NCBI RefSeq assembly: GCF_024700885.2 | Contig: NZ_CP117016.1 | Direction: 5' to 3' (one strand) | Length of the DNA stretch: 64,000 nt | Source: Escherichia coli | GTDB lineage: Bacteria; Pseudomonadota; Gammaproteobacteria; Enterobacterales; Enterobacteriaceae | Part shown: piece after piece, positions 29,727 to 37,136 of the stretch | Numbering within the stretch: the first letter of the stretch is position 1 | Layout: every line of letters starts with the position of its first letter | Notes under the pieces: generated by a model | The model's database searches: none | What the model saw: the letters and a program-made list of their open reading frames with translations, nothing else | What the model was told of the DNA's origin: nothing | Position numbers and translations under genes: made by a program

Positions 29727-30812
29727 TTAAACGCTGGCAATACTCTCACACAAAATCCGCAGCACCGTCTCTTCACCGCTGCGATTTGGGTTAATGCGAA
29801 TCGCGCAATGTTCGAGTTGCGGATTCGCCTGGCGAAACGTTCCGGAAAGACGGTAAAAGAGCGGCGGGATCTCATATTTCGACTCTGCACCGACCGGGTA
29901 AGGCAAGGCACCGCGCTTTTGCGCCTCTTCCAGCACTCTGGCGGCAATCGGCTGATGAAACTCGACAATCAACACCTTCGACTGTGCATTGGCAATCACC
30001 GCGCTTTTCACTTCCGCCACTGCACCACCGTTAAGTAAAGCCAGCAACCGTTCAGATACCCCCGCCTGCACCGCGTGCATCACTGGCGCAAACACCAGAC
30101 CACGCAATACTTCCAGCGCCTGTGAGCCCTGGATCTGGCTGCCGCCGGAGTAAAGCGTGGCGCGAATACGATTGATAACATCAGCATCGCCTACCACCGC
30201 GCCAACACCCTCTGGCCCAAATAGCTTGAAGCAGGAAAATGTCGAGACATTCGCCCCGCATTCGCAGCCGATTCGCGCTACCTTCATCACCGCATAGTTG
30301 TCATCGGTTAAGGCTGGAACACCTGCCGCGCGCAACGTTGCCAGCACATCTGCCAGTACATAGCTGTCCTGCGGCTGCTGGCGCGTATGCTGCACCAGCG
30401 CGGCATCTGGTTGTTGCTCGTCGACAACCTGCTTCAGTGCCGACAGGTCATTGAAATCAGCAGTAATAAGCGTCAGCCCCATCTGTTCAATGATGACGCG
30501 TGTCGTCGGATAAACGGGCGCGTCATGCACCAGAAGACGCTGCCCCGGTTTGAGCAAAGCCGCCAACGCCGCACGAATCGCGCCAGTACCCGCGCCCTGC
30601 ACCAGCGCCGCCGCTGGCGCATGAAACGCATCAGCCAGCACCTGCTCCACACGCTGAGTAATGCGCGGTTGATTCAGTCCCGGCGTTAAGCCCAAATCAC
30701 CGCTGGTAAGAAACTCCGCGCCGGGAAAGTGACGGCAAATGCTATCCACCAGCGTAAACTGCTTTTGCTGCGCCTCAATAATCGTCAGGCTTTGCAGAGG
30801 AAACGTCTTCAT
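29727..30812 (-). CDS. yhfS: YhfS, putative PLP-dependent enzyme (aminotransferase/lyase fold), 361 aa
   Basis: Translation MKTFPLQSLTIIEAQQK...; the segment STFSCFKLFGPEG resembles the Schiff-base-lysine region of fold-type-I PLP enzymes. The domain call is an inference. Confidence 0.85.
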   Translation of the reverse strand: MKTFPLQSLTIIEAQQKQFTLVDSICRHFPGAEFLTSGDLGLTPGLNQPRITQRVEQVLADAFHAPAAALVQGAGTGAIRAALAALLKPGQRLLVHDAPVYPTTRVIIEQMGLTLITADFNDLSALKQVVDEQQPDAALVQHTRQQPQDSYVLADVLATLRAAGVPALTDDNYAVMKVARIGCECGANVSTFSCFKLFGPEGVGAVVGDADVINRIRATLYSGGSQIQGSQALEVLRGLVFAPVMHAVQAGVSERLLALLNGGAVAEVKSAVIANAQSKVLIVEFHQPIAARVLEEAQKRGALPYPVGAESKYEIPPLFYRLSGTFRQANPQLEHCAIRINPNRSGEETVLRILCESIASV

Positions 30813-30823
30813 AGGTGCCTTCC

Positions 30824-32128
30824 TTAAGCCGGAACGAACAGGCCAAGCCAGTAAAGAACATTCAGCAGAATACCGGTGATCATTACGGCTACGACCGGTG
30901 CCGCCATTTTCTGTACCGGACGGCCCAGGGATTCGTTGAGGAAGTAAATGGCAACCGCGATAGAGAATCCGGTATAACCCGCCATTTTAATTGCTGCGAA
31001 AATCGAACCGACCAGCAACGCCACTTCCATCAGCATATTCATGGCGTTACGGATGTTATCCGACGCATTACGCACCGACGGGTAGCGCCCCAGCCATTTG
31101 CCGATCGAACGAAGCAGCAAGACTTCCGCCGAAATAACCACTGCACCTAATACCGCTGCAACCATCGGATTCGGCGAGAGATAGCCCACCGCATAAACAA
31201 AGGTAAAGCCCGCAACTGCATACACACCAGTGGCTAACGCGGTGGTGGCAATCAACGGTACAAAACCCAGCCCGCGCATAAATTCCGCCAGAGCTGCCTG
31301 GTTGATTAGTGTTTGTGATTGTTCCGGCGTTACGCCTGCGGAATATGCTTTCTCCAGTGTGAAGATCGACACTTCACTGCCAGCAAAGATCTTCATGCTG
31401 GCAACGGCGGCAATCAGCGCCCCGACAATAGCGATATACGGTAAGTTTTTGATAATCCGCGACGTGCGTTCTTCAAACACCGAAAGCCCGCTGGCATCAA
31501 TATCATTTTCATCACGATGACGCAGGTCGTGAGTTATCGCGATCCCCAGCAGCATCACCATGCCAATAAAGATTTCGATGGATTCCGGATTGAGATGCGG
31601 GAAATAGCGCACGACCACCACACGGGTCATCAGAACAACCACGGCGGCGACCAGACTTTGCTTCCAGCCAAACTGGTAGAAAATCGCCACCAGCGGGAAC
31701 AGTGCAAAAGCAGAAACCACCGGCGAGCTTAATTCCCCGAGGCTACCTAATACATCCACCGGCAGCGCGGTCAGCAGCTGGTTTACTGGCAACAGACAGG
31801 TGAGGATCAACACGCCCCAGATAGCGCCAAGACCAAACGCCATCAGGCTGTTTATCGCCAGTACGCCGAGGATATCGGTAGGAAGAAAGAGTAGCCATGC
31901 GTTGAGCAGCCCGGTTTTCAGGGTAAAAGAGATCCCCACCGAGGCCACAAAACCAATGCTCAGACCAAAAGCGATACTCCCCGCCTCGCGACGGTTCATA
32001 TAACCTTCAATCAGTTGTGGCAGGATCGGGCGGATACCGTCATGAAAAACGGCCGCCGAGCGATGCGCCAAAAGCGATGTCATACCCGTCAGGCACGCCA
32101 CCACGATAATCTGAATATACAGATCCAT
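30824..32128 (-). CDS. yhfT: YhfT, polytopic inner-membrane protein (putative transporter), 434 aa
   Basis: About 10-12 hydrophobic segments (MDLYIQIIVVACLTGMTSLLAH...). Confidence 0.85.
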   Translation of the reverse strand: MDLYIQIIVVACLTGMTSLLAHRSAAVFHDGIRPILPQLIEGYMNRREAGSIAFGLSIGFVASVGISFTLKTGLLNAWLLFLPTDILGVLAINSLMAFGLGAIWGVLILTCLLPVNQLLTALPVDVLGSLGELSSPVVSAFALFPLVAIFYQFGWKQSLVAAVVVLMTRVVVVRYFPHLNPESIEIFIGMVMLLGIAITHDLRHRDENDIDASGLSVFEERTSRIIKNLPYIAIVGALIAAVASMKIFAGSEVSIFTLEKAYSAGVTPEQSQTLINQAALAEFMRGLGFVPLIATTALATGVYAVAGFTFVYAVGYLSPNPMVAAVLGAVVISAEVLLLRSIGKWLGRYPSVRNASDNIRNAMNMLMEVALLVGSIFAAIKMAGYTGFSIAVAIYFLNESLGRPVQKMAAPVVAVMITGILLNVLYWLGLFVPA

Positions 32129-32139
32129 AGTCGTGCCTT

Positions 32140-32493
32140 TTATTTCAGATGGTTAATCAGCATCGGAATCGCGTGTTCGACATGCTCAACGGAAAGCCCA
32201 AACGCCACTTTCCCTTCGGCGATCATTTTGGCGATATGTTCGTCTTTCGCTTTAATGCCTGGTTTGGCAATGGTGCAACTTTTGTTATAGCCAATCACCG
32301 CGATGGCAATCGACAATGCCGCGCCCGCACCGGTATTACACGCGCCGATGTAGTAATCCAGTTGCCCGGATTTCACTTTCATTGCCGCTTCCATGTCGTT
32401 GTGAATGAAAACTTCAAAACAGCCAGGAGCCGTCGCTTCAATGGTTTTTTTAATCTGCTCACGCTGTAAGCCTGCAACACCAATCTTTTTCAT
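32140..32493 (-). CDS. yhfU: YhfU, small protein of unknown function, 117 aa
   Basis: ORF track 32140..32532; the internal ATG (MKKIGVAGLQREQIKK...) gives the remembered 117 aa. Confidence 0.8.
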   Translation of the reverse strand: MKKIGVAGLQREQIKKTIEATAPGCFEVFIHNDMEAAMKVKSGQLDYYIGACNTGAGAALSIAIAVIGYNKSCTIAKPGIKAKDEHIAKMIAEGKVAFGLSVEHVEHAIPMLINHLK

Positions 32494-35768: not shown

Positions 35769-35851
35769 CTTGTTGCCTCGTTTCTGTTCCTTGAATTAAA
35801 TATTCATTTTTCTGAATATTTAGATTATGCGACGTGGATTTGTCGGGAGCT

Positions 35852-36214
35852 TCAAACCTCTTCGTTAGCAGCCATCCATAATCCATAAAGGTTGGCCAGC
35901 AAATAGCCTTCTTCACACGGGTTAACTTCCAGTGTAAATTCCTTCAACAACACCTGATGCAATTGCACAACGGCTTGCCAGTGGCTGGATTGCGCCAGTT
36001 CTGCCAGCAATTCGGCGTCCAGCGGCTCTATTTCTTCACCACGGCGACTGCGCATCAGTGCGCTCGCCATATGTGTCATCGCCATCATTCCTTGCTCGCT
36101 GCGCACCGGTAGATGACACTCTGTTTCCAGTACGTTGACGACCTGCATCATGCCTTTGCAGATGTCCTTATCAATAACGCCTGCATCGCAAAGCAGGTTG
36201 AGTCTGGTTTCCAT
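35852..36214 (-). CDS. yhfY: YhfY, small PRD-domain-like protein, 120 aa
   Basis: ORF track 35852..36334 extends upstream into yhfZ; the internal ATG (METRLNLLCDAGVIDKDIC...) gives the remembered 120 aa. Confidence 0.78.
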   Translation of the reverse strand: METRLNLLCDAGVIDKDICKGMMQVVNVLETECHLPVRSEQGMMAMTHMASALMRSRRGEEIEPLDAELLAELAQSSHWQAVVQLHQVLLKEFTLEVNPCEEGYLLANLYGLWMAANEEV

Positions 36215-36230
36215 TTCAGATGCCTTTCGT

Positions 36231-37136
36231 TTAATAACTGGGTTCCTGTTCCCCACTGACCACTCGTTGTTGATGGGCAAGCAGGGCCTGTTTATCAACA
36301 ACTGCACGCAGCAATTGTTGCATCGGGTAATCATCGACTCGCGTCAAAACCACGGCTTCGGTGGCCTGTAAAAATCGCGGATCGTCTGTGAGCGGCGTCG
36401 CTTCTAATCCCAGCATGGTCAGTTCGTTTTCCGCCACCACGTTCCAGATCACCGCATCGACATCGCCTTTAACAATGCGTTGTAAACTCTCGTGATAAGA
36501 GAGATCGACACGTTCCACATCACTATCGCCAAAAAAGACATCGGTCATGATTTTCTGATCCGCCGAACGGTTATCCAGCCCCACGCGCTTCACGTTTGCG
36601 GACTCGCCTTTACGGCAAATCAACTGGTGCTCGCCAACGTAGGTGTGCGGCCCCAACTCCAGCGCGAGGCATAAGCCTTTTTGCGTGAGATAACTTTCCG
36701 CCGCCAGTCGGGAAACAACCGCCATGTCATACACGCCGTTAAGTAAACACTCCACGCGAATATCCGCGCCGCGCATATGCGCATAGTAAAAAGGAATACC
36801 ATCAAACTGGGCTTTCAATCCGCTCGCCAGGCCTTCGTACAAACGGGTATAGGGCAAGGGCATCGCACATACCACGTTGTTGATATCCACATGAGTCAGC
36901 AATGCTTTGTTATCCATCTCGACCAGATAACTGCCATTGCGCCCACGGCGTTCTATCCGTATCGCTCCGCTTGATTCCAGCGTTTTCAACGCGGCCTGCG
37001 TCAGGCCAACGGATGAACGGCATTCAGTTGCCAGCTCATCTATGGTTTTCAGTCGATTACCGCACTTTTCACCCAACAAATAACGGGCCAGTGTCGTGAT
37101 GACGACGCCTTCTTTTTTGATAAACGTTCGACGCAT
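36231..37136 (-). CDS. yhfZ: YhfZ, putative transcriptional regulator (N-terminal HTH), 301 aa
   Basis: N-terminal HTH-like segment (IDELATECRSSVGLTQAALKTLESSGAIRI); first gene of the co-directional yhf cluster. Confidence 0.85.
   Translation of the reverse strand: MRRTFIKKEGVVITTLARYLLGEKCGNRLKTIDELATECRSSVGLTQAALKTLESSGAIRIERRGRNGSYLVEMDNKALLTHVDINNVVCAMPLPYTRLYEGLASGLKAQFDGIPFYYAHMRGADIRVECLLNGVYDMAVVSRLAAESYLTQKGLCLALELGPHTYVGEHQLICRKGESANVKRVGLDNRSADQKIMTDVFFGDSDVERVDLSYHESLQRIVKGDVDAVIWNVVAENELTMLGLEATPLTDDPRFLQATEAVVLTRVDDYPMQQLLRAVVDKQALLAHQQRVVSGEQEPSY

Follow-up and report, generated by a model that had tools for sequence, protein, structure and literature searches.

The yhf locus of Escherichia coli is a conserved, self-contained catabolic module, and it is probably substrate-inducible. 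The module is widely conserved, appears to serve nutrient breakdown and is tied to the sugar phosphotransferase system (PTS). In addition to this, what is new here is a conserved 26-bp palindrome before both yhfZ and yhfX, the identification of YhfY as a one-domain PRD protein, an RpiB-like fold with an invariant Cys in YhfU, whose gene is always next to yhfT, and Enzyme I or HPr genes at six loci, one of them an HPr fusion to a Php homologue. NagB, amidase, acid phosphatase and ABC transporter genes are occasional members. As the best overall explanation we tentatively propose an inducible, PTS-coupled catabolic pathway with an amino-sugar-like substrate.

The locus and its boundaries

The eight genes from yhfZ to yhfS are intact and lie on the minus strand at 29727-37136 of the window, i.e. 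the whole 64 kb stretch of DNA that was analysed. The DNA of the window is identical to E. coli chromosomes. The original prediction of eight co-directional genes, with their spacings and overlaps, agrees exactly with the ORF list and with the RefSeq annotation of an identical chromosome. The features are as follows.

yhfS, 29727-30812, minus strand: fold-type I PLP enzyme, apparently lyase-like; optional module member
yhfT, 30824-32128, minus strand: polytopic inner-membrane protein that forms its own family; presumed permease
yhfU (DUF2620), 32140-32493, minus strand: small soluble protein with RpiB/LacAB-like fold, partner of YhfT
php (yhfV), 32504-33382, minus strand: binuclear metallohydrolase of the phosphotriesterase (PTE) family
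yhfW, 33379-34605, minus strand: phosphopentomutase-like phosphotransferase, alkaline-phosphatase superfamily
yhfX, 34605-35768, minus strand: fold-type III PLP enzyme of racemase, epimerase or D-amino-acid deaminase type
yhfY, 35852-36214, minus strand: single-domain PRD protein
yhfZ, 36231-37136, minus strand: transcription regulator, N-terminal winged HTH and C-terminal periplasmic-binding-protein-like sensor domain
O_Z, 37139-37164: candidate operator, palindrome upstream of yhfZ
O_X, 35797-35822: candidate operator, palindrome inside the yhfY-yhfX gap
trpS intrinsic terminator, 37259-37282, minus strand: 10-bp stem, then T-run
REP element, approximately 29625-29684: Rfam naRNA4 (REP-derived family), 33.8 bits, E 0.0044

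The genes are tightly packed: 16 nt separate yhfZ from yhfY and 83 nt yhfY from yhfX, yhfX and yhfW overlap by 1 nt and yhfW and php by 4 nt, while the remaining gaps are 10 nt (php-yhfU) and 11 nt (yhfU-yhfT and yhfT-yhfS). Upstream, trpS adjoins yhfZ, as had been proposed, and its strong terminator is the boundary that shields yhfZ from trpS transcription. Downstream, the convergent genes frlR (ending at 29619) and yhfS have the REP element between them. The adjacency to frl across a REP element is thus correct by position; however, it is Escherichia-specific and has no functional meaning.

The locus itself has long been catalogued in E. coli, and the system is uncharacterised. In the full-text literature that could be searched we found no published function or biochemical assignment for the cluster, in line with what had been claimed. 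Crystal structures exist for four of its proteins.

Conservation and distribution

From contigs of GTDB species representatives we obtained 500 stretches encoding YhfT relatives and fetched 80 loci. Co-occurrence was counted over 58 non-Escherichia loci (genes are named by their last letter, V being php): T is present in 55, U in 51, V and X in 49 each, Z in 47, Y in 44 and W in 43. The module consists of Z, Y, U, T, Php, X and W, with S optional, and it is found in Enterobacterales, Vibrionaceae, Fusobacteriota, Clostridia and Bacilli. Its genes form one co-directional cluster across four phyla, and no other gene family recurs across phyla in these 58 loci.

In E. coli the cluster is present in about 93% of the complete genomes and absent from about 6%. 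Against the Citrobacter and Cedecea orthologues all eight genes show a dN/dS of 0.03-0.13, i.e. strong purifying selection, indicating that they are real genes and not chance ORFs. Further, the place beside trpS is retained in at least eight genera.

Regulators and candidate operators

YhfZ matches the NCBIfam model YhfZ_full with 373 bits and contains the Pfam domains HTH_41 and YhfZ_C; the structure of its C-terminal domain is PDB 2OZZ. YhfY matches TIGR03582 (3e-6) and Pfam PRD (0.0087), and its homologues carry precomputed PF00874 matches. His48, Arg55 and Glu101 are invariant and lie in the canonical PRD motif T-H-(L/M)-A-x-A-x-x-R. Judged by its sequence, YhfY is a genuine one-domain PRD (PTS regulation domain) protein with a predicted phosphorylatable His.

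The candidate operator O_Z reads TAAATTTTCA-N6-TGAATATTTA, and its last base is 2 nt from the yhfZ start codon. O_X is a perfect palindrome, TAAATATTCA-N6-TGAATATTTA. Only three exact half-sites occur in the 64 kb, all within the O_Z and O_X regions. Upstream of Z the 26-bp palindrome has the same position in Citrobacter, Klebsiella, Buttiauxella, Cedecea and Yersinia; in Vibrionaceae the form seen is weaker. O_X is kept across Enterobacterales, where 18-20 of 20 positions match.

The tight packing had been read as the signature of an operon. The packing is real, but the 83-nt gap between Y and X has a palindrome of its own, and an E. coli operon table gives php-yhfSTUWX as a unit without yhfZY (PMC4448311); two units are therefore likelier than one eight-gene transcript. 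The candidate palindromes suggest that these two transcription units would be co-regulated.

Enzymes of the module

All the domain assignments that had been proposed were confirmed: the HTH regulator YhfZ, the PRD-like YhfY, the PLP enzymes YhfX and YhfS, the phosphopentomutase-like YhfW, the phosphotriesterase homologue Php and the polytopic membrane protein YhfT. The motifs HEHLH in Php and DHGNDPT in YhfW (as ADHGNDPT) are present.

YhfX (PDB 4KBX) combines Ala_racemase_N, a fold-type III PLP domain, with YhfX-like_C (Pfam), and its Lys61 is invariant. It matches the ornithine racemase Orr weakly (3.7e-8); apart from YhfX structures, Ala racemase, YggS and D-Thr aldolase come closest among the solved proteins. 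YhfW scores 733 bits against PRK12383 and matches phosphopentomutase in the PDB at 3e-31. As in that enzyme, every metal ligand and the Thr/Ser nucleophile are kept, D10, D83, T/S84, H88, D298, H302, D338, H339 and H350 being invariant. Against the DeoB model it reaches 143 bits, far under the equivalog cutoff of 341. Several Yersinia species have the module without W.

Php (PDB 1BF6 and 4LEF) scores 648 bits against PRK09875, is related to phospho-furanose lactonases (NCBIfam, 1.5e-27) and has invariant H12, H14, E125, H158, H186 and D243. The gene is a multicopy suppressor of delta-pdxB with unassigned activity, and overexpression apparently rescues through formation of 2-oxo-3-hydroxy-4-phosphobutanoate (PMC3010111).

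YhfS (PDB 4J8L) contains Aminotran_1_2 and YhfS-like_C (Pfam), with invariant Asp170 and Lys196. Its family profile comes closest to Met gamma-lyase and cystathionine gamma-synthase (2e-10), C-S lyases and cysteine desulfurases, and its relatives give weak matches of SelA/MJ0158 type. YhfS looks lyase-like rather than aminotransferase-like. It is missing from Vibrionaceae, Yersinia and several Clostridia.

The YhfU-YhfT pair

YhfU had been described as a small protein of no known kind. It is indeed small, but not featureless: it has the fold of RpiB (ribose-5-phosphate isomerase B) and LacAB, with an invariant Cys52 in a Gly-rich loop. With 117 aa it is shorter than the matched RpiB/LacAB chains (148-212 aa), and presumably it lacks the N-terminal Asp-His and the C-terminal phosphate-binding helices of RpiB. 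A search for a solved structural relative of YhfT found none. The two genes are adjacent in every case and frequently overlap, and none of the others in the cluster is as strongly conserved. At two loci (L002 and L003) the pair stands alone without any enzyme, which speaks for YhfU as a partner in transport rather than an enzyme of the pathway. We presume that YhfT and YhfU are a transporter pair of an as yet undescribed kind.

PTS genes and other neighbours

Enzyme I or HPr genes lie in or beside the cluster at six loci. Enzyme I is encoded by a gene that overlaps the W end at L080 and is convergent to the cluster at L007. An HPr gene directly follows W at L084, L086 and L087, while at L096 a fusion joins the Php homologue and an HPr domain that carries the motif GLHARPA. 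PTS genes adjoin the cluster in about 6 of roughly 25 loci outside the Proteobacteria and, by this count, in none within them, and no EIIA-like gene was found inside the cluster. Together with the phospho-His motif of YhfY, these neighbours and the fusion form the basis for the PTS link.

Other neighbours give the system its sugar or amino-sugar flavour. In Vibrionaceae a chitobiose-type PTS IIC gene adjoins the cluster in eight loci, six of which also have the IIA and IIB genes. NagB (glucosamine-6-phosphate deaminase), scoring above the curated cutoff, is inside or adjoining the cluster in Thalassobacillus, Melghirimyces and Psychrilyobacter. Sugar ABC transporter genes of RbsB type are found just upstream at L096 (a binding protein of ribose/allose type) and L010; also upstream are KDPG aldolase and KDG kinase at L088 and a glucarate-dehydratase-like gene at L090.

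A short amidase with an intact Lys-Ser-Ser triad is part of the cluster in Firmicutes and Fusobacteria, and in C. citroniae it is annotated as fused to YhfT. It occurs in no Proteobacteria, where the rest of the module is unchanged. In some Enterobacterales secreted acid phosphatases take the place of yhfS; in Pluralibacter, Enterobacter sp. and Shimwellia the genes that come after yhfT are those of e(P4)-type 5'-nucleotidase and PhoC acid phosphatase. None of the clusters contains a glycosidase or a phosphorylase, nor a nucleoside phosphorylase or hydrolase.

A proposed pathway and its alternatives

In the proposed pathway YhfZ would bind the palindromes and keep both units repressed in the absence of the substrate or an intermediate, and YhfY would pass the PTS phosphorylation state to this switch. 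YhfT and YhfU would import the substrate. PEP-derived phosphoryl groups may reach it through Enzyme I and HPr, either via Cys52 of YhfU in transport or later via YhfW as a phospho-enzyme. Php, by sequence and structure a competent hydrolase, might open a lactone or cleave an N-acyl group, a stage that the short amidase may share in Firmicutes and Fusobacteria. YhfX would then epimerise or deaminate the alpha-amino-acid-like carbon, YhfW would shift the phosphate to the position required by the next enzyme, and the optional YhfS could perform an elimination or deamination. Products would enter central metabolism through housekeeping enzymes, e.g. NagB or a KDPG-type aldolase.

The substrate is most likely both amino-sugar-like and an alpha-amino acid: an N-acyl or lactone form of a 2-amino-2-deoxy-aldonate, or a conjugate containing one. 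There are precedents for such chemistry. In the oxidised-chitin pathway N-acetyl-glucosaminate is degraded by an amidohydrolase-superfamily deacetylase and then a fold-type III PLP deaminase (PMC9537276), and PTER of the PTE family is an N-acetyl-amine hydrolase (PMC11374699). The relation of Php to phospho-furanose lactonases and the weak SelA/MJ0158-type matches of YhfS relatives are counted in favour as well. Plain D-glucosaminate is unlikely, since a metabolic reconstruction of E. coli lineages makes its degradation lineage-specific (STc95) while yhf is nearly universal. Our findings are compatible with the original suggestion that the cluster takes up and degrades a phosphorylated or esterified amino compound; as a refinement, the PTS is the most likely source of the phosphate.

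The substrate class is a proposal, and the evidence points to no unique substrate. A simple 6-phospho-aminoaldonate route has no need of YhfW, an aldonate would not call for NagB, and the acid phosphatases replacing yhfS equally fit a nucleotide or phospho-ester source. The lack of an EIIA-like gene in the cluster and the small number of loci with adjacent PTS genes also speak against the proposed pathway. It is quite possible that the PTS link is regulatory only. Phosphorylation of YhfY would then serve as catabolite control, YhfT would be an ordinary ion-coupled secondary carrier, YhfU would be either a chaperone of YhfT or a cytoplasmic enzyme resembling sugar-phosphate isomerases, and the substrate would be phosphorylated by another kinase or arrive already phosphorylated. 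However, YhfU is short for an RpiB/LacAB chain, the U-T pair exists without the enzymes, and an HPr-hydrolase fusion and an Enzyme I gene overlapping W are odd for mere regulation. A non-sugar phosphorylated or phospho-esterified amino acid, in line with the original suggestion, is somewhat unlikely as the substrate; examples would be a phospho-hydroxy-amino acid or a phosphodiester of the kind of seryl, threonyl or ethanolamine phosphate esters. In that case phosphoesterase activity would fall to Php, phosphatase or mutase activity to YhfW, racemase or dehydratase activity to YhfX and beta- or gamma-lyase activity to YhfS. Phospho-ester hydrolases do occur in the PTE family, the delta-pdxB rescue implies that Php accepts small phosphorylated hydroxy-acids (PMC3010111), the closest YhfS relatives use O- or S-substituted homoserine or cysteine, and three Enterobacterales have secreted acid phosphatases attached to the cluster; but this reading accounts neither for NagB, the sugar-type ABC genes, the chitobiose PTS and KDPG aldolase as neighbours nor for the need of a PTS phosphoryl relay if the compound already carries phosphate.

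NagB in two phyla, the intact amidase with its annotated YhfT fusion, and the presence of racemase-like and lyase-like enzymes would fit an amino-acid conjugate that contains glucosamine, for instance a muropeptide fragment, an N- or O-glycosyl-amino acid or an aminoacyl-glucosamine like the bacillithiol core. Cleavage would be the task of the amidase or Php, YhfW would turn the 1-phosphate of the sugar into the 6-phosphate that NagB uses, and YhfX and YhfS would handle the amino acid, perhaps a D-isomer. We consider this unlikely, given the clusters without any glycosidase or phosphorylase and the otherwise identical module without amidase in all Proteobacteria. A ribosyl or nucleoside-type amino compound, with YhfW as a true pentose 1,5-phosphomutase and ribose 5-phosphate as end product, appears quite unlikely: the phosphopentomutase catalytic residues of YhfW, the nucleotidase and PhoC genes, the ribose/allose-type binding protein and the RpiB fold of YhfU agree with it, but the DeoB score of YhfW, the Yersinia modules without W and the lack of nucleoside phosphorylase or hydrolase in the cluster do not. 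Finally, it is very improbable that the cluster survives in E. coli as a silent evolutionary remnant and serves no function today. The literature yielded no phenotype or inducer and some E. coli genomes lack the cluster; however, all eight genes are under purifying selection, the catalytic residues are all intact, and both the operators and the position beside trpS are conserved.

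The yhf locus and its boundaries

Over positions 29727-37136 the DNA matches E. coli chromosomes with 100% identity, and at least 80% of this segment is carried by 5061 of 5426 complete genomes. In RefSeq its eight genes, all on the minus strand, are named yhfS, yhfT, yhfU, php (yhfV), yhfW, yhfX, yhfY and yhfZ. The same annotation places the frlABCDR operon, convergent on the cluster, at one side and trpS-gph-rpe-dam upstream on the other. The cluster and the elements beside it are:

29727-37136, minus strand: yhfZ-to-yhfS cluster
About 29625-29684: REP element between frlR and yhfS (Rfam naRNA4, 33.8 bits)
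37259-37282: trpS terminator

The original prediction described eight co-directional genes, and all its coordinates, spacings and motifs are reproduced by the ORF list and a fresh translation. The intergenic spacings are 16, 83, -1, -4, 10, 11 and 11 nt. The cluster is confirmed by the ORF list, by the RefSeq annotation and by purifying selection on all eight genes: against Citrobacter and Cedecea orthologues dN/dS is 0.03-0.13 for every gene, indicating strong selection, with yhfT and yhfU being the most constrained.

No signature of horizontal transfer was found, as the GC of the cluster (0.51-0.55) equals that of its flanks. The adjacency to trpS is kept in at least eight Enterobacteriaceae genera, whereas the frl neighbour is seen only in Escherichia, which is why we rejected any functional link to frl.

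A module shared by four phyla

A scan of GTDB species representatives gave 500 stretches encoding relatives of YhfT, of which 80 loci, biased towards Proteobacteria, were fetched. The scan used the closer 11-sequence YhfT alignment, the 31-sequence one being too divergent, and 17 further loci came from look-ups of distant relatives; individual loci are referred to by L numbers. The loci were analyzed by tblastn with the eight E. coli proteins and by all-against-all clustering of ORFs, and 58 non-Escherichia loci were clustered.

Among these 58 loci YhfT is present in 55, YhfU in 51, Php and YhfX in 49 each, YhfZ in 47, YhfY in 44, YhfW in 43 and YhfS in 9, and no other gene family recurs across phyla. 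The genes Z, Y, U, T, php, X and W form one co-directional cluster in Enterobacterales, in Vibrionaceae (in the order Z-Y-V-U-T-X-W, V being php), in Fusobacteriota (Sebaldella, Psychrilyobacter), in Clostridia (Caproiciproducens, Harryflintia, C. cavendishii, Alkalicella) and in Bacilli (Thalassobacillus, Melghirimyces, Alkalibacterium). yhfS is missing from Vibrionaceae, Yersinia, Pluralibacter gergoviae and several Clostridia. Co-occurrence across genomes, by which the original prediction could be checked, is thus borne out: the module is common to four phyla as one cluster, with yhfS optional. We are confident, if short of certain, that it is a conserved, self-contained and regulated catabolic module.

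In several Yersinia species (L044, L045, L048-L051, L054, L055) Z, Y, X, php, U and T remain, while yhfW and yhfS are both lost; yhfW is retained in Y. nurmii (L046).

Proposed regulation by YhfZ

YhfZ consists of an HTH_41 domain and a YhfZ_C sensor domain. RefSeq names it a GntR-family protein; Pfam gives HTH_41, not GntR, with PF00392 appearing just weakly in one homologue, and the effector domain YhfZ_C is none of the classical GntR subfamily domains. Two palindromes, here called O_X and O_Z, lie before yhfX and yhfZ:

35797-35822, yhfY-yhfX gap: O_X, a perfect palindrome, TAAATATTCA-N6-TGAATATTTA
37139-37164, two bases before the yhfZ start codon: O_Z, a one-mismatch copy, TAAATTTTCA-N6-TGAATATTTA

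Exact half-sites occur only three times in the 64-kb window, all within O_Z and O_X. The two sites have the same palindromes in Citrobacter, Klebsiella, Buttiauxella, Cedecea, Trabulsiella and Yersinia, matching at 16-20 of 20 positions (18-20 for the O_X-type site before yhfX), and Vibrionaceae have a weaker version before yhfZ. We infer from this that the palindrome is the YhfZ operator, and therefore YhfZ would regulate itself.

The locus would comprise two co-regulated units, yhfZY and yhfXW-php-yhfUTS, a reading with which a published operon listing that leaves out Z and Y agrees. The single-operon signature of the original prediction accordingly stands in part. Co-direction and tight spacing are there, while two units are more likely than one transcript, as yhfX has its own palindrome and the operon listing omits Z and Y.

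Other regulatory elements were searched for. With Rfam neither a riboswitch nor a leader RNA was found, the one match being the REP-derived naRNA4, and in a paper on riboswitch candidates the yhf operon is merely listed as a neighbour of distant intervals (PMC4448311). A BIME-type attenuator has been proposed for yhfZ (PMC2965389); however, the window holds no REP-like element upstream of yhfZ, the sole one being downstream of yhfS. The sigma-54 motif TGGC-N8-TGC has no match in the two intergenic regions, and its matches in the cluster are all intracoding and in total not above chance. A scan for the sigma-70 consensus was uninformative, with fewer matches than in shuffled sequence.

Two further observations concern these regions. 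The AT-rich cysG-yhfL intergenic region (24078-24256) contains three one-mismatch copies of the half-site TAAATATTCA, none of which forms an N6 palindrome; they are probably an effect of composition. In the start region of yhfZ (37139-37136) no Shine-Dalgarno sequence accompanies the annotated start codon, which is separated from the candidate operator by 2 nt. The gene may be translated inefficiently or without a leader, or may in truth start elsewhere.

The enzymes

Php is a PTE-family TIM-barrel protein scoring 648 bits to PRK09875 (cutoff 486). Its binuclear metal site (HxH, bridging carboxylate, H, H, D) is made up of H12, H14, E125, H158, H186 and D243, which are invariant across the family. 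As described for structure 1BF6, the bridging ligand is Glu125 rather than the carboxylated Lys of classical PTE. The match to the NCBIfam model for phospho-furanose lactonase (1.5e-27) reaches 97 bits against an equivalog cutoff of 630. Lmo2620 and Bh0225 are phospho-sugar lactonases of the PTE family. Mammalian PTER, an N-acetyltaurine and N-acetyl-amine hydrolase, also belongs to it (PMC11374699). Php shares the family with these enzymes, its binuclear site having His-x-His, His, His and Asp ligands.

YhfX has an N-terminal fold-type III barrel (PF01168, 5.9e-22) and an invariant PLP-binding Lys61. It is far from the characterised members: the nearest is Orr (3.7e-8), followed by alanine racemase (1e-4) and then YggS and D-threonine aldolase. 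YhfS, the second PLP enzyme, has an invariant PLP Lys196 and Asp170. All its NCBIfam matches are below 40 bits against cutoffs above 300; it is a family of its own, with a YhfS-like_C domain, and its relatives give weak SelA/MJ0158-type matches. By family profile its closest matches are methionine gamma-lyase and cystathionine gamma-synthase (2e-10), with C-S lyases and cysteine desulfurases also near, and for this reason YhfS looks more like a lyase than an aminotransferase. Neither YhfS nor YhfX matches a characterised equivalog.

YhfW keeps the alkaline-phosphatase-type metal ligands and the Thr/Ser nucleophile (D10, D83, T/S84, H88, D298, H302, D338, H339, H350), residues which correspond to those of B. 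cereus PPM. It shares its fold family and catalytic residues with DeoB; however, it scores 143 bits to TIGR01696 (DeoB), below the equivalog cutoff of 341, and has a family model of its own, PRK12383. It sits in no nucleoside-catabolic context, and the loci examined contain no nucleoside phosphorylase.

In general, the protein assignments of the original prediction hold. The HTH regulator call for YhfZ is upheld by HTH_41 and YhfZ_C, and the PRD-like call for YhfY by a phosphorylatable His motif invariant in 22 homologues. For Php the phosphotriesterase-homology amidohydrolase agrees with its PRK09875 score, its invariant metal site and structures 1BF6 and 4LEF. YhfX proves to be a fold-type III PLP protein, which may be a racemase or a deaminase, and YhfS has the residues of a PLP enzyme. 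YhfW keeps all catalytic residues of a phosphopentomutase-like metalloenzyme, though the DeoB equivalog score is missed. Judged from sequence or structure, the active sites of Php, YhfW, YhfX, YhfS and of a neighbouring amidase are competent.

A genomic link to the phosphotransferase system

For the E. coli YhfY the scores to the PTS regulation domain (PRD) are weak (Pfam E 0.0087; TIGR03582 3e-6), while its homologues carry precomputed PF00874. His48, Arg55 and Glu101 are invariant in the 22 diverse homologues, within the canonical PRD helix T-H-(L/M)-A-x-A-x-x-R. Firmicutes retain the second PRD His, and in Proteobacteria Asn takes its place.

Genes of the general phosphotransferase system (PTS) components accompany the module in several loci. 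In L080 yhfW overlaps at its end with an Enzyme I gene (TIGR01417, 738 bits), and L007 has an Enzyme I gene convergent with the cluster. L084, L086 and L087 have an HPr gene immediately after yhfW, and the one in L084 scores 70.7 bits to TIGR01003 (cutoff 47.9). Further, on a metagenome contig (Logan SRR28211912, L096:6137-7384) a single ORF of 415 residues straight after yhfT fuses a Php-type domain, which scores 199 bits to the Php model, with a complete HPr domain (63.4 bits, cutoff 47.9) having the active site G-L-H-A-R-P-A. Enzyme I or HPr is thus associated with six loci, about five of them independent, of roughly 25 non-proteobacterial loci, which is good genomic evidence that a PEP-derived phosphoryl relay belongs to the yhf system. 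That the coupling to the PTS is mechanistic, going beyond regulation, we consider an even bet.

The cluster does not make up a canonical Enzyme II: it has no known EIIC and no EIIA, and the fold of its candidate carrier is like that of RpiB rather than EIIB. YhfT resembles no known EIIC family, and none of the eight E. coli yhf proteins matches an EIIA model; EIIA genes are met only in neighbouring chitobiose-type PTS operons of Vibrionaceae. YhfU has the RpiB/LacAB fold with the catalytic Cys-x-Thr-Gly loop, and an RpiB-like fold with an invariant Cys is shown by sequence or structure. Full-length membership is not seen: PF02502 matches with E 0.16 over 30 residues and a PDB profile search gives E 0.13, and YhfU, at 117 aa, is shorter than the RpiB/LacAB chains matched (148-212 aa). 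RpiB requires an N-terminal Asp-His and C-terminal phosphate-binding residues. PDB sequence searches with YhfU and YhfY gave marginal matches only.

In the loci examined yhfU and yhfT are always adjacent and often overlap. In L002 (9586-11341) and L003 (2322-4077) the pair stands alone between trmE and a recN-like gene, with neither enzymes nor regulators, and this speaks for YhfU as a partner of the membrane protein YhfT. The AFDB50 matches include two eukaryotic entries, A0A077ZJH0 (Trichuris trichiura, "Gasdermin-D") and A0A0A2WJZ4 (Beauveria bassiana). Their identity to E. coli YhfT is 86-100%, and they almost certainly stem from bacterial contamination or from chimeric gene models.

Speculatively, YhfT, YhfU and YhfY could form an unrecognised type of PTS-dependent uptake and phosphorylation system, with a new-fold membrane component, an RpiB-like Cys protein as the last phosphocarrier and a stand-alone PRD protein linking to HPr. 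The yhf module would be the first pathway known with such a system, serving an amino-sugar acid from oxidised chitin or host glycans. We rate this combined proposal as improbable; if YhfT/YhfU were a new PTS-type permease, a transport system whose catalogue is believed complete would gain one more family. Alternatively, the PTS may act on the system solely through regulation; YhfT would then be a secondary carrier and YhfU an enzyme of isomerase type.

Comparison with known systems

The locus itself is already catalogued: it is annotated in E. coli genomes, and four of its proteins have been crystallised by structural-genomics projects (Php, 1BF6 and 4LEF; YhfX, 4KBX; YhfS, 4J8L; YhfZ C-domain, 2OZZ). 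The original prediction knew of no assigned substrate, and our full-text search of the open-access literature, which could miss a report in a subscription journal, likewise gave no substrate or pathway for the cluster. Overexpression of php rescues delta-pdxB via an unidentified serendipitous route, in a study that still places Php among proteins of unknown function (PMC3010111); this is the sole functional datum on the cluster's proteins. A yhfZ knockout was scored in a screen for resistance to a lacritin peptide (PMC12147183), a match that is incidental and uninformative. Observing the locus is not in itself new, and no described pathway matches the system it encodes.

In Salmonella, dgaABCDEF degrades D-glucosaminate through a mannose-family PTS, the PLP ammonia-lyase DgaE and the KDPG aldolase DgaF. 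The lyase is described in PMC9529869. The yhf system as proposed would share with it PTS-linked uptake of an amino-sugar acid followed by fold-type I PLP elimination. However, yhf lacks the mannose-family EIIABCD and the aldolase, and has YhfT, YhfU, a PTE hydrolase, a fold-type III PLP enzyme and a phosphomutase instead.

The ong cluster of Pseudoalteromonas, the one characterised N-acetyl-glucosaminate pathway, acts on oxidised chitin (GlcNAc1A) with an N-deacetylase of the amidohydrolase superfamily, OngB, and then a fold-type III PLP deaminase, OngC (PMC9537276). At the superfamily level OngB/OngC and Php/YhfX are the same pair, while OngB is of the D-aminoacylase family and Php of the PTE family. 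Uptake in ong is by an SSS symporter without phosphorylation, and ong has no phosphomutase, PRD protein or YhfT/YhfU, all of which are present in yhf.

The cassette EF_0829/AHA_3910, the gene set TIGR03576-TIGR03582, consists of a PRD protein, an aldolase, a PLP enzyme resembling SelA, and small proteins of unknown function, some in the membrane and some soluble. Like yhf it has uncharacterised membrane components together with a PLP enzyme and a PRD protein that stands alone. YhfY resembles TIGR03582 (3e-6) and YhfS TIGR03576 (1.5e-4), all scores being far under the family cutoffs, and YhfT and YhfU match none of the cassette's NCBIfam models. A full-text search on the Pfam names of this cassette, itself uncharacterised, gave nothing functional.

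DhaKLM, a PTS-dependent dihydroxyacetone kinase, is a precedent in that Enzyme I and HPr pass phosphate to a soluble enzyme and not to a classical permease. In both systems an HPr-like domain is fused to a pathway protein (DhaM; the PTE-HPr fusion of L096), while Dha-type domains are absent from yhf. In general, yhf would work like a PTS-linked sugar-acid or amino-sugar operon without a canonical Enzyme II.

Occasional neighbours

A short amidase of about 345 aa (amidase-signature family), with an intact triad of Lys51, Ser101 and Ser125, has 947 relatives at E <= 0.001 and occurs in yhf-like clusters of Fusobacteriota and Firmicutes. Its gene lies between yhfT and php in Sebaldella, Psychrilyobacter and Alkalicella and is divergent to the cluster in Alkalibacterium. 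The AFDB entry G5HJH7 of C. citroniae (768 residues), annotated as an amidase-domain protein, matches YhfT over its entire length, which suggests that it is an amidase-YhfT fusion. Secreted acid phosphatase genes follow yhfT in three Enterobacterales without yhfS, class C e(P4)-type in two and class A PhoC in two, one of the three (Pluralibacter) also having an OmpL-like porin gene. The positions are:

L069:11347-12378: amidase
L092:9001-10053: amidase
L093:9001-10113: amidase
L094:9001-10047: amidase
L042:11339-12968: acid phosphatase
L047:11341-13044: acid phosphatase
L056:2887-3630: acid phosphatase

Several other neighbours are of sugar type. NagB, above its curated cutoff, is encoded directly after the last gene in Thalassobacillus and Melghirimyces and before yhfZ in Psychrilyobacter. 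RbsB-type sugar ABC transporter genes lie upstream of the cluster in L096 and L010, KDPG aldolase and KDG kinases adjoin it in L088, and L090 has a glucarate-dehydratase-like gene. In eight Vibrionaceae loci a chitobiose-type PTS IIC gene adjoins the cluster, on either side, accompanied in six of them by IIA and IIB genes and a conserved 296-aa protein without an NCBIfam match (L057:4258-5148; homologues in L065, L067, L070, L077 and L078).

A possible pathway and its substrate

In the mechanism we propose, YhfZ would repress both units until a ligand occupies its sensor domain, and YhfY would relay the phosphorylation state of the PTS. The substrate would be imported by YhfT and YhfU, and PEP-derived phosphate would be put on it via YhfU Cys52 or a phospho-enzyme form of YhfW. 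Php would open a lactone or remove an N-acyl group, YhfX would epimerise or deaminate an alpha-amino-acid-type carbon and YhfW would relocate the phosphate. YhfS, if present, would carry out an elimination, and housekeeping enzymes would complete the breakdown.

By analogy, we tentatively favour a substrate of the amino-aldonate type, either a 2-amino-2-deoxy-aldonate in N-acyl or lactone form or a conjugate containing one, because the ong pathway, the Salmonella glucosaminate route and the PTE-family lactonases and PTER are precedents. Being sugars, amino-aldonates fit the sugar-type ABC, PTS, NagB and KDPG neighbours, and being alpha-amino acids they fit the two PLP enzymes. The assignment is doubtful all the same: a simple 6-phospho-aldonate route leaves YhfW without an obvious role, and an aldonate would not need NagB. 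Plain D-glucosaminate is disfavoured, as its predicted degradation in E. coli uses another gene set and is lineage-specific, whereas yhf is nearly universal.

Some of the same evidence can be read differently. A glucosamine-amino-acid conjugate may be the substrate, which would account for both NagB and the amidase. The phosphopentomutase residues of YhfW, the e(P4) nucleotidase and the RbsB-type binding protein would suit a ribosyl-amino compound, and the original idea of a non-sugar phospho-amino or phosphodiester compound may draw on the delta-pdxB suppression and the attached acid phosphatases. The cluster may even be a silent relic, but this is contradicted by the conserved operator-like sites, the purifying selection and the kept trpS synteny.

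The eight-gene block belongs to the best-studied organism, and the problem of its function is now experimentally approachable, with conservation in four phyla, a tie to Enzyme I/HPr, a defined candidate operator and a short list of candidate substrate classes. If the substrate is an oxidised amino sugar, this would show the use of a common oxidation product of chitin and glycans by gut and marine bacteria. It would also give a native activity to Php, a bacterial relative of mammalian PTER, which regulates feeding and obesity.

Two other kinds of neighbour were also seen. In L006, a Firmicutes-type locus, three tandem paralogous ATP-grasp genes follow the yhfX homologue (11815-16353); they could provide ligase chemistry on the same compound or be unrelated neighbours. 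D-2-hydroxyacid dehydrogenase genes lie beside the cluster in L083 and L087.
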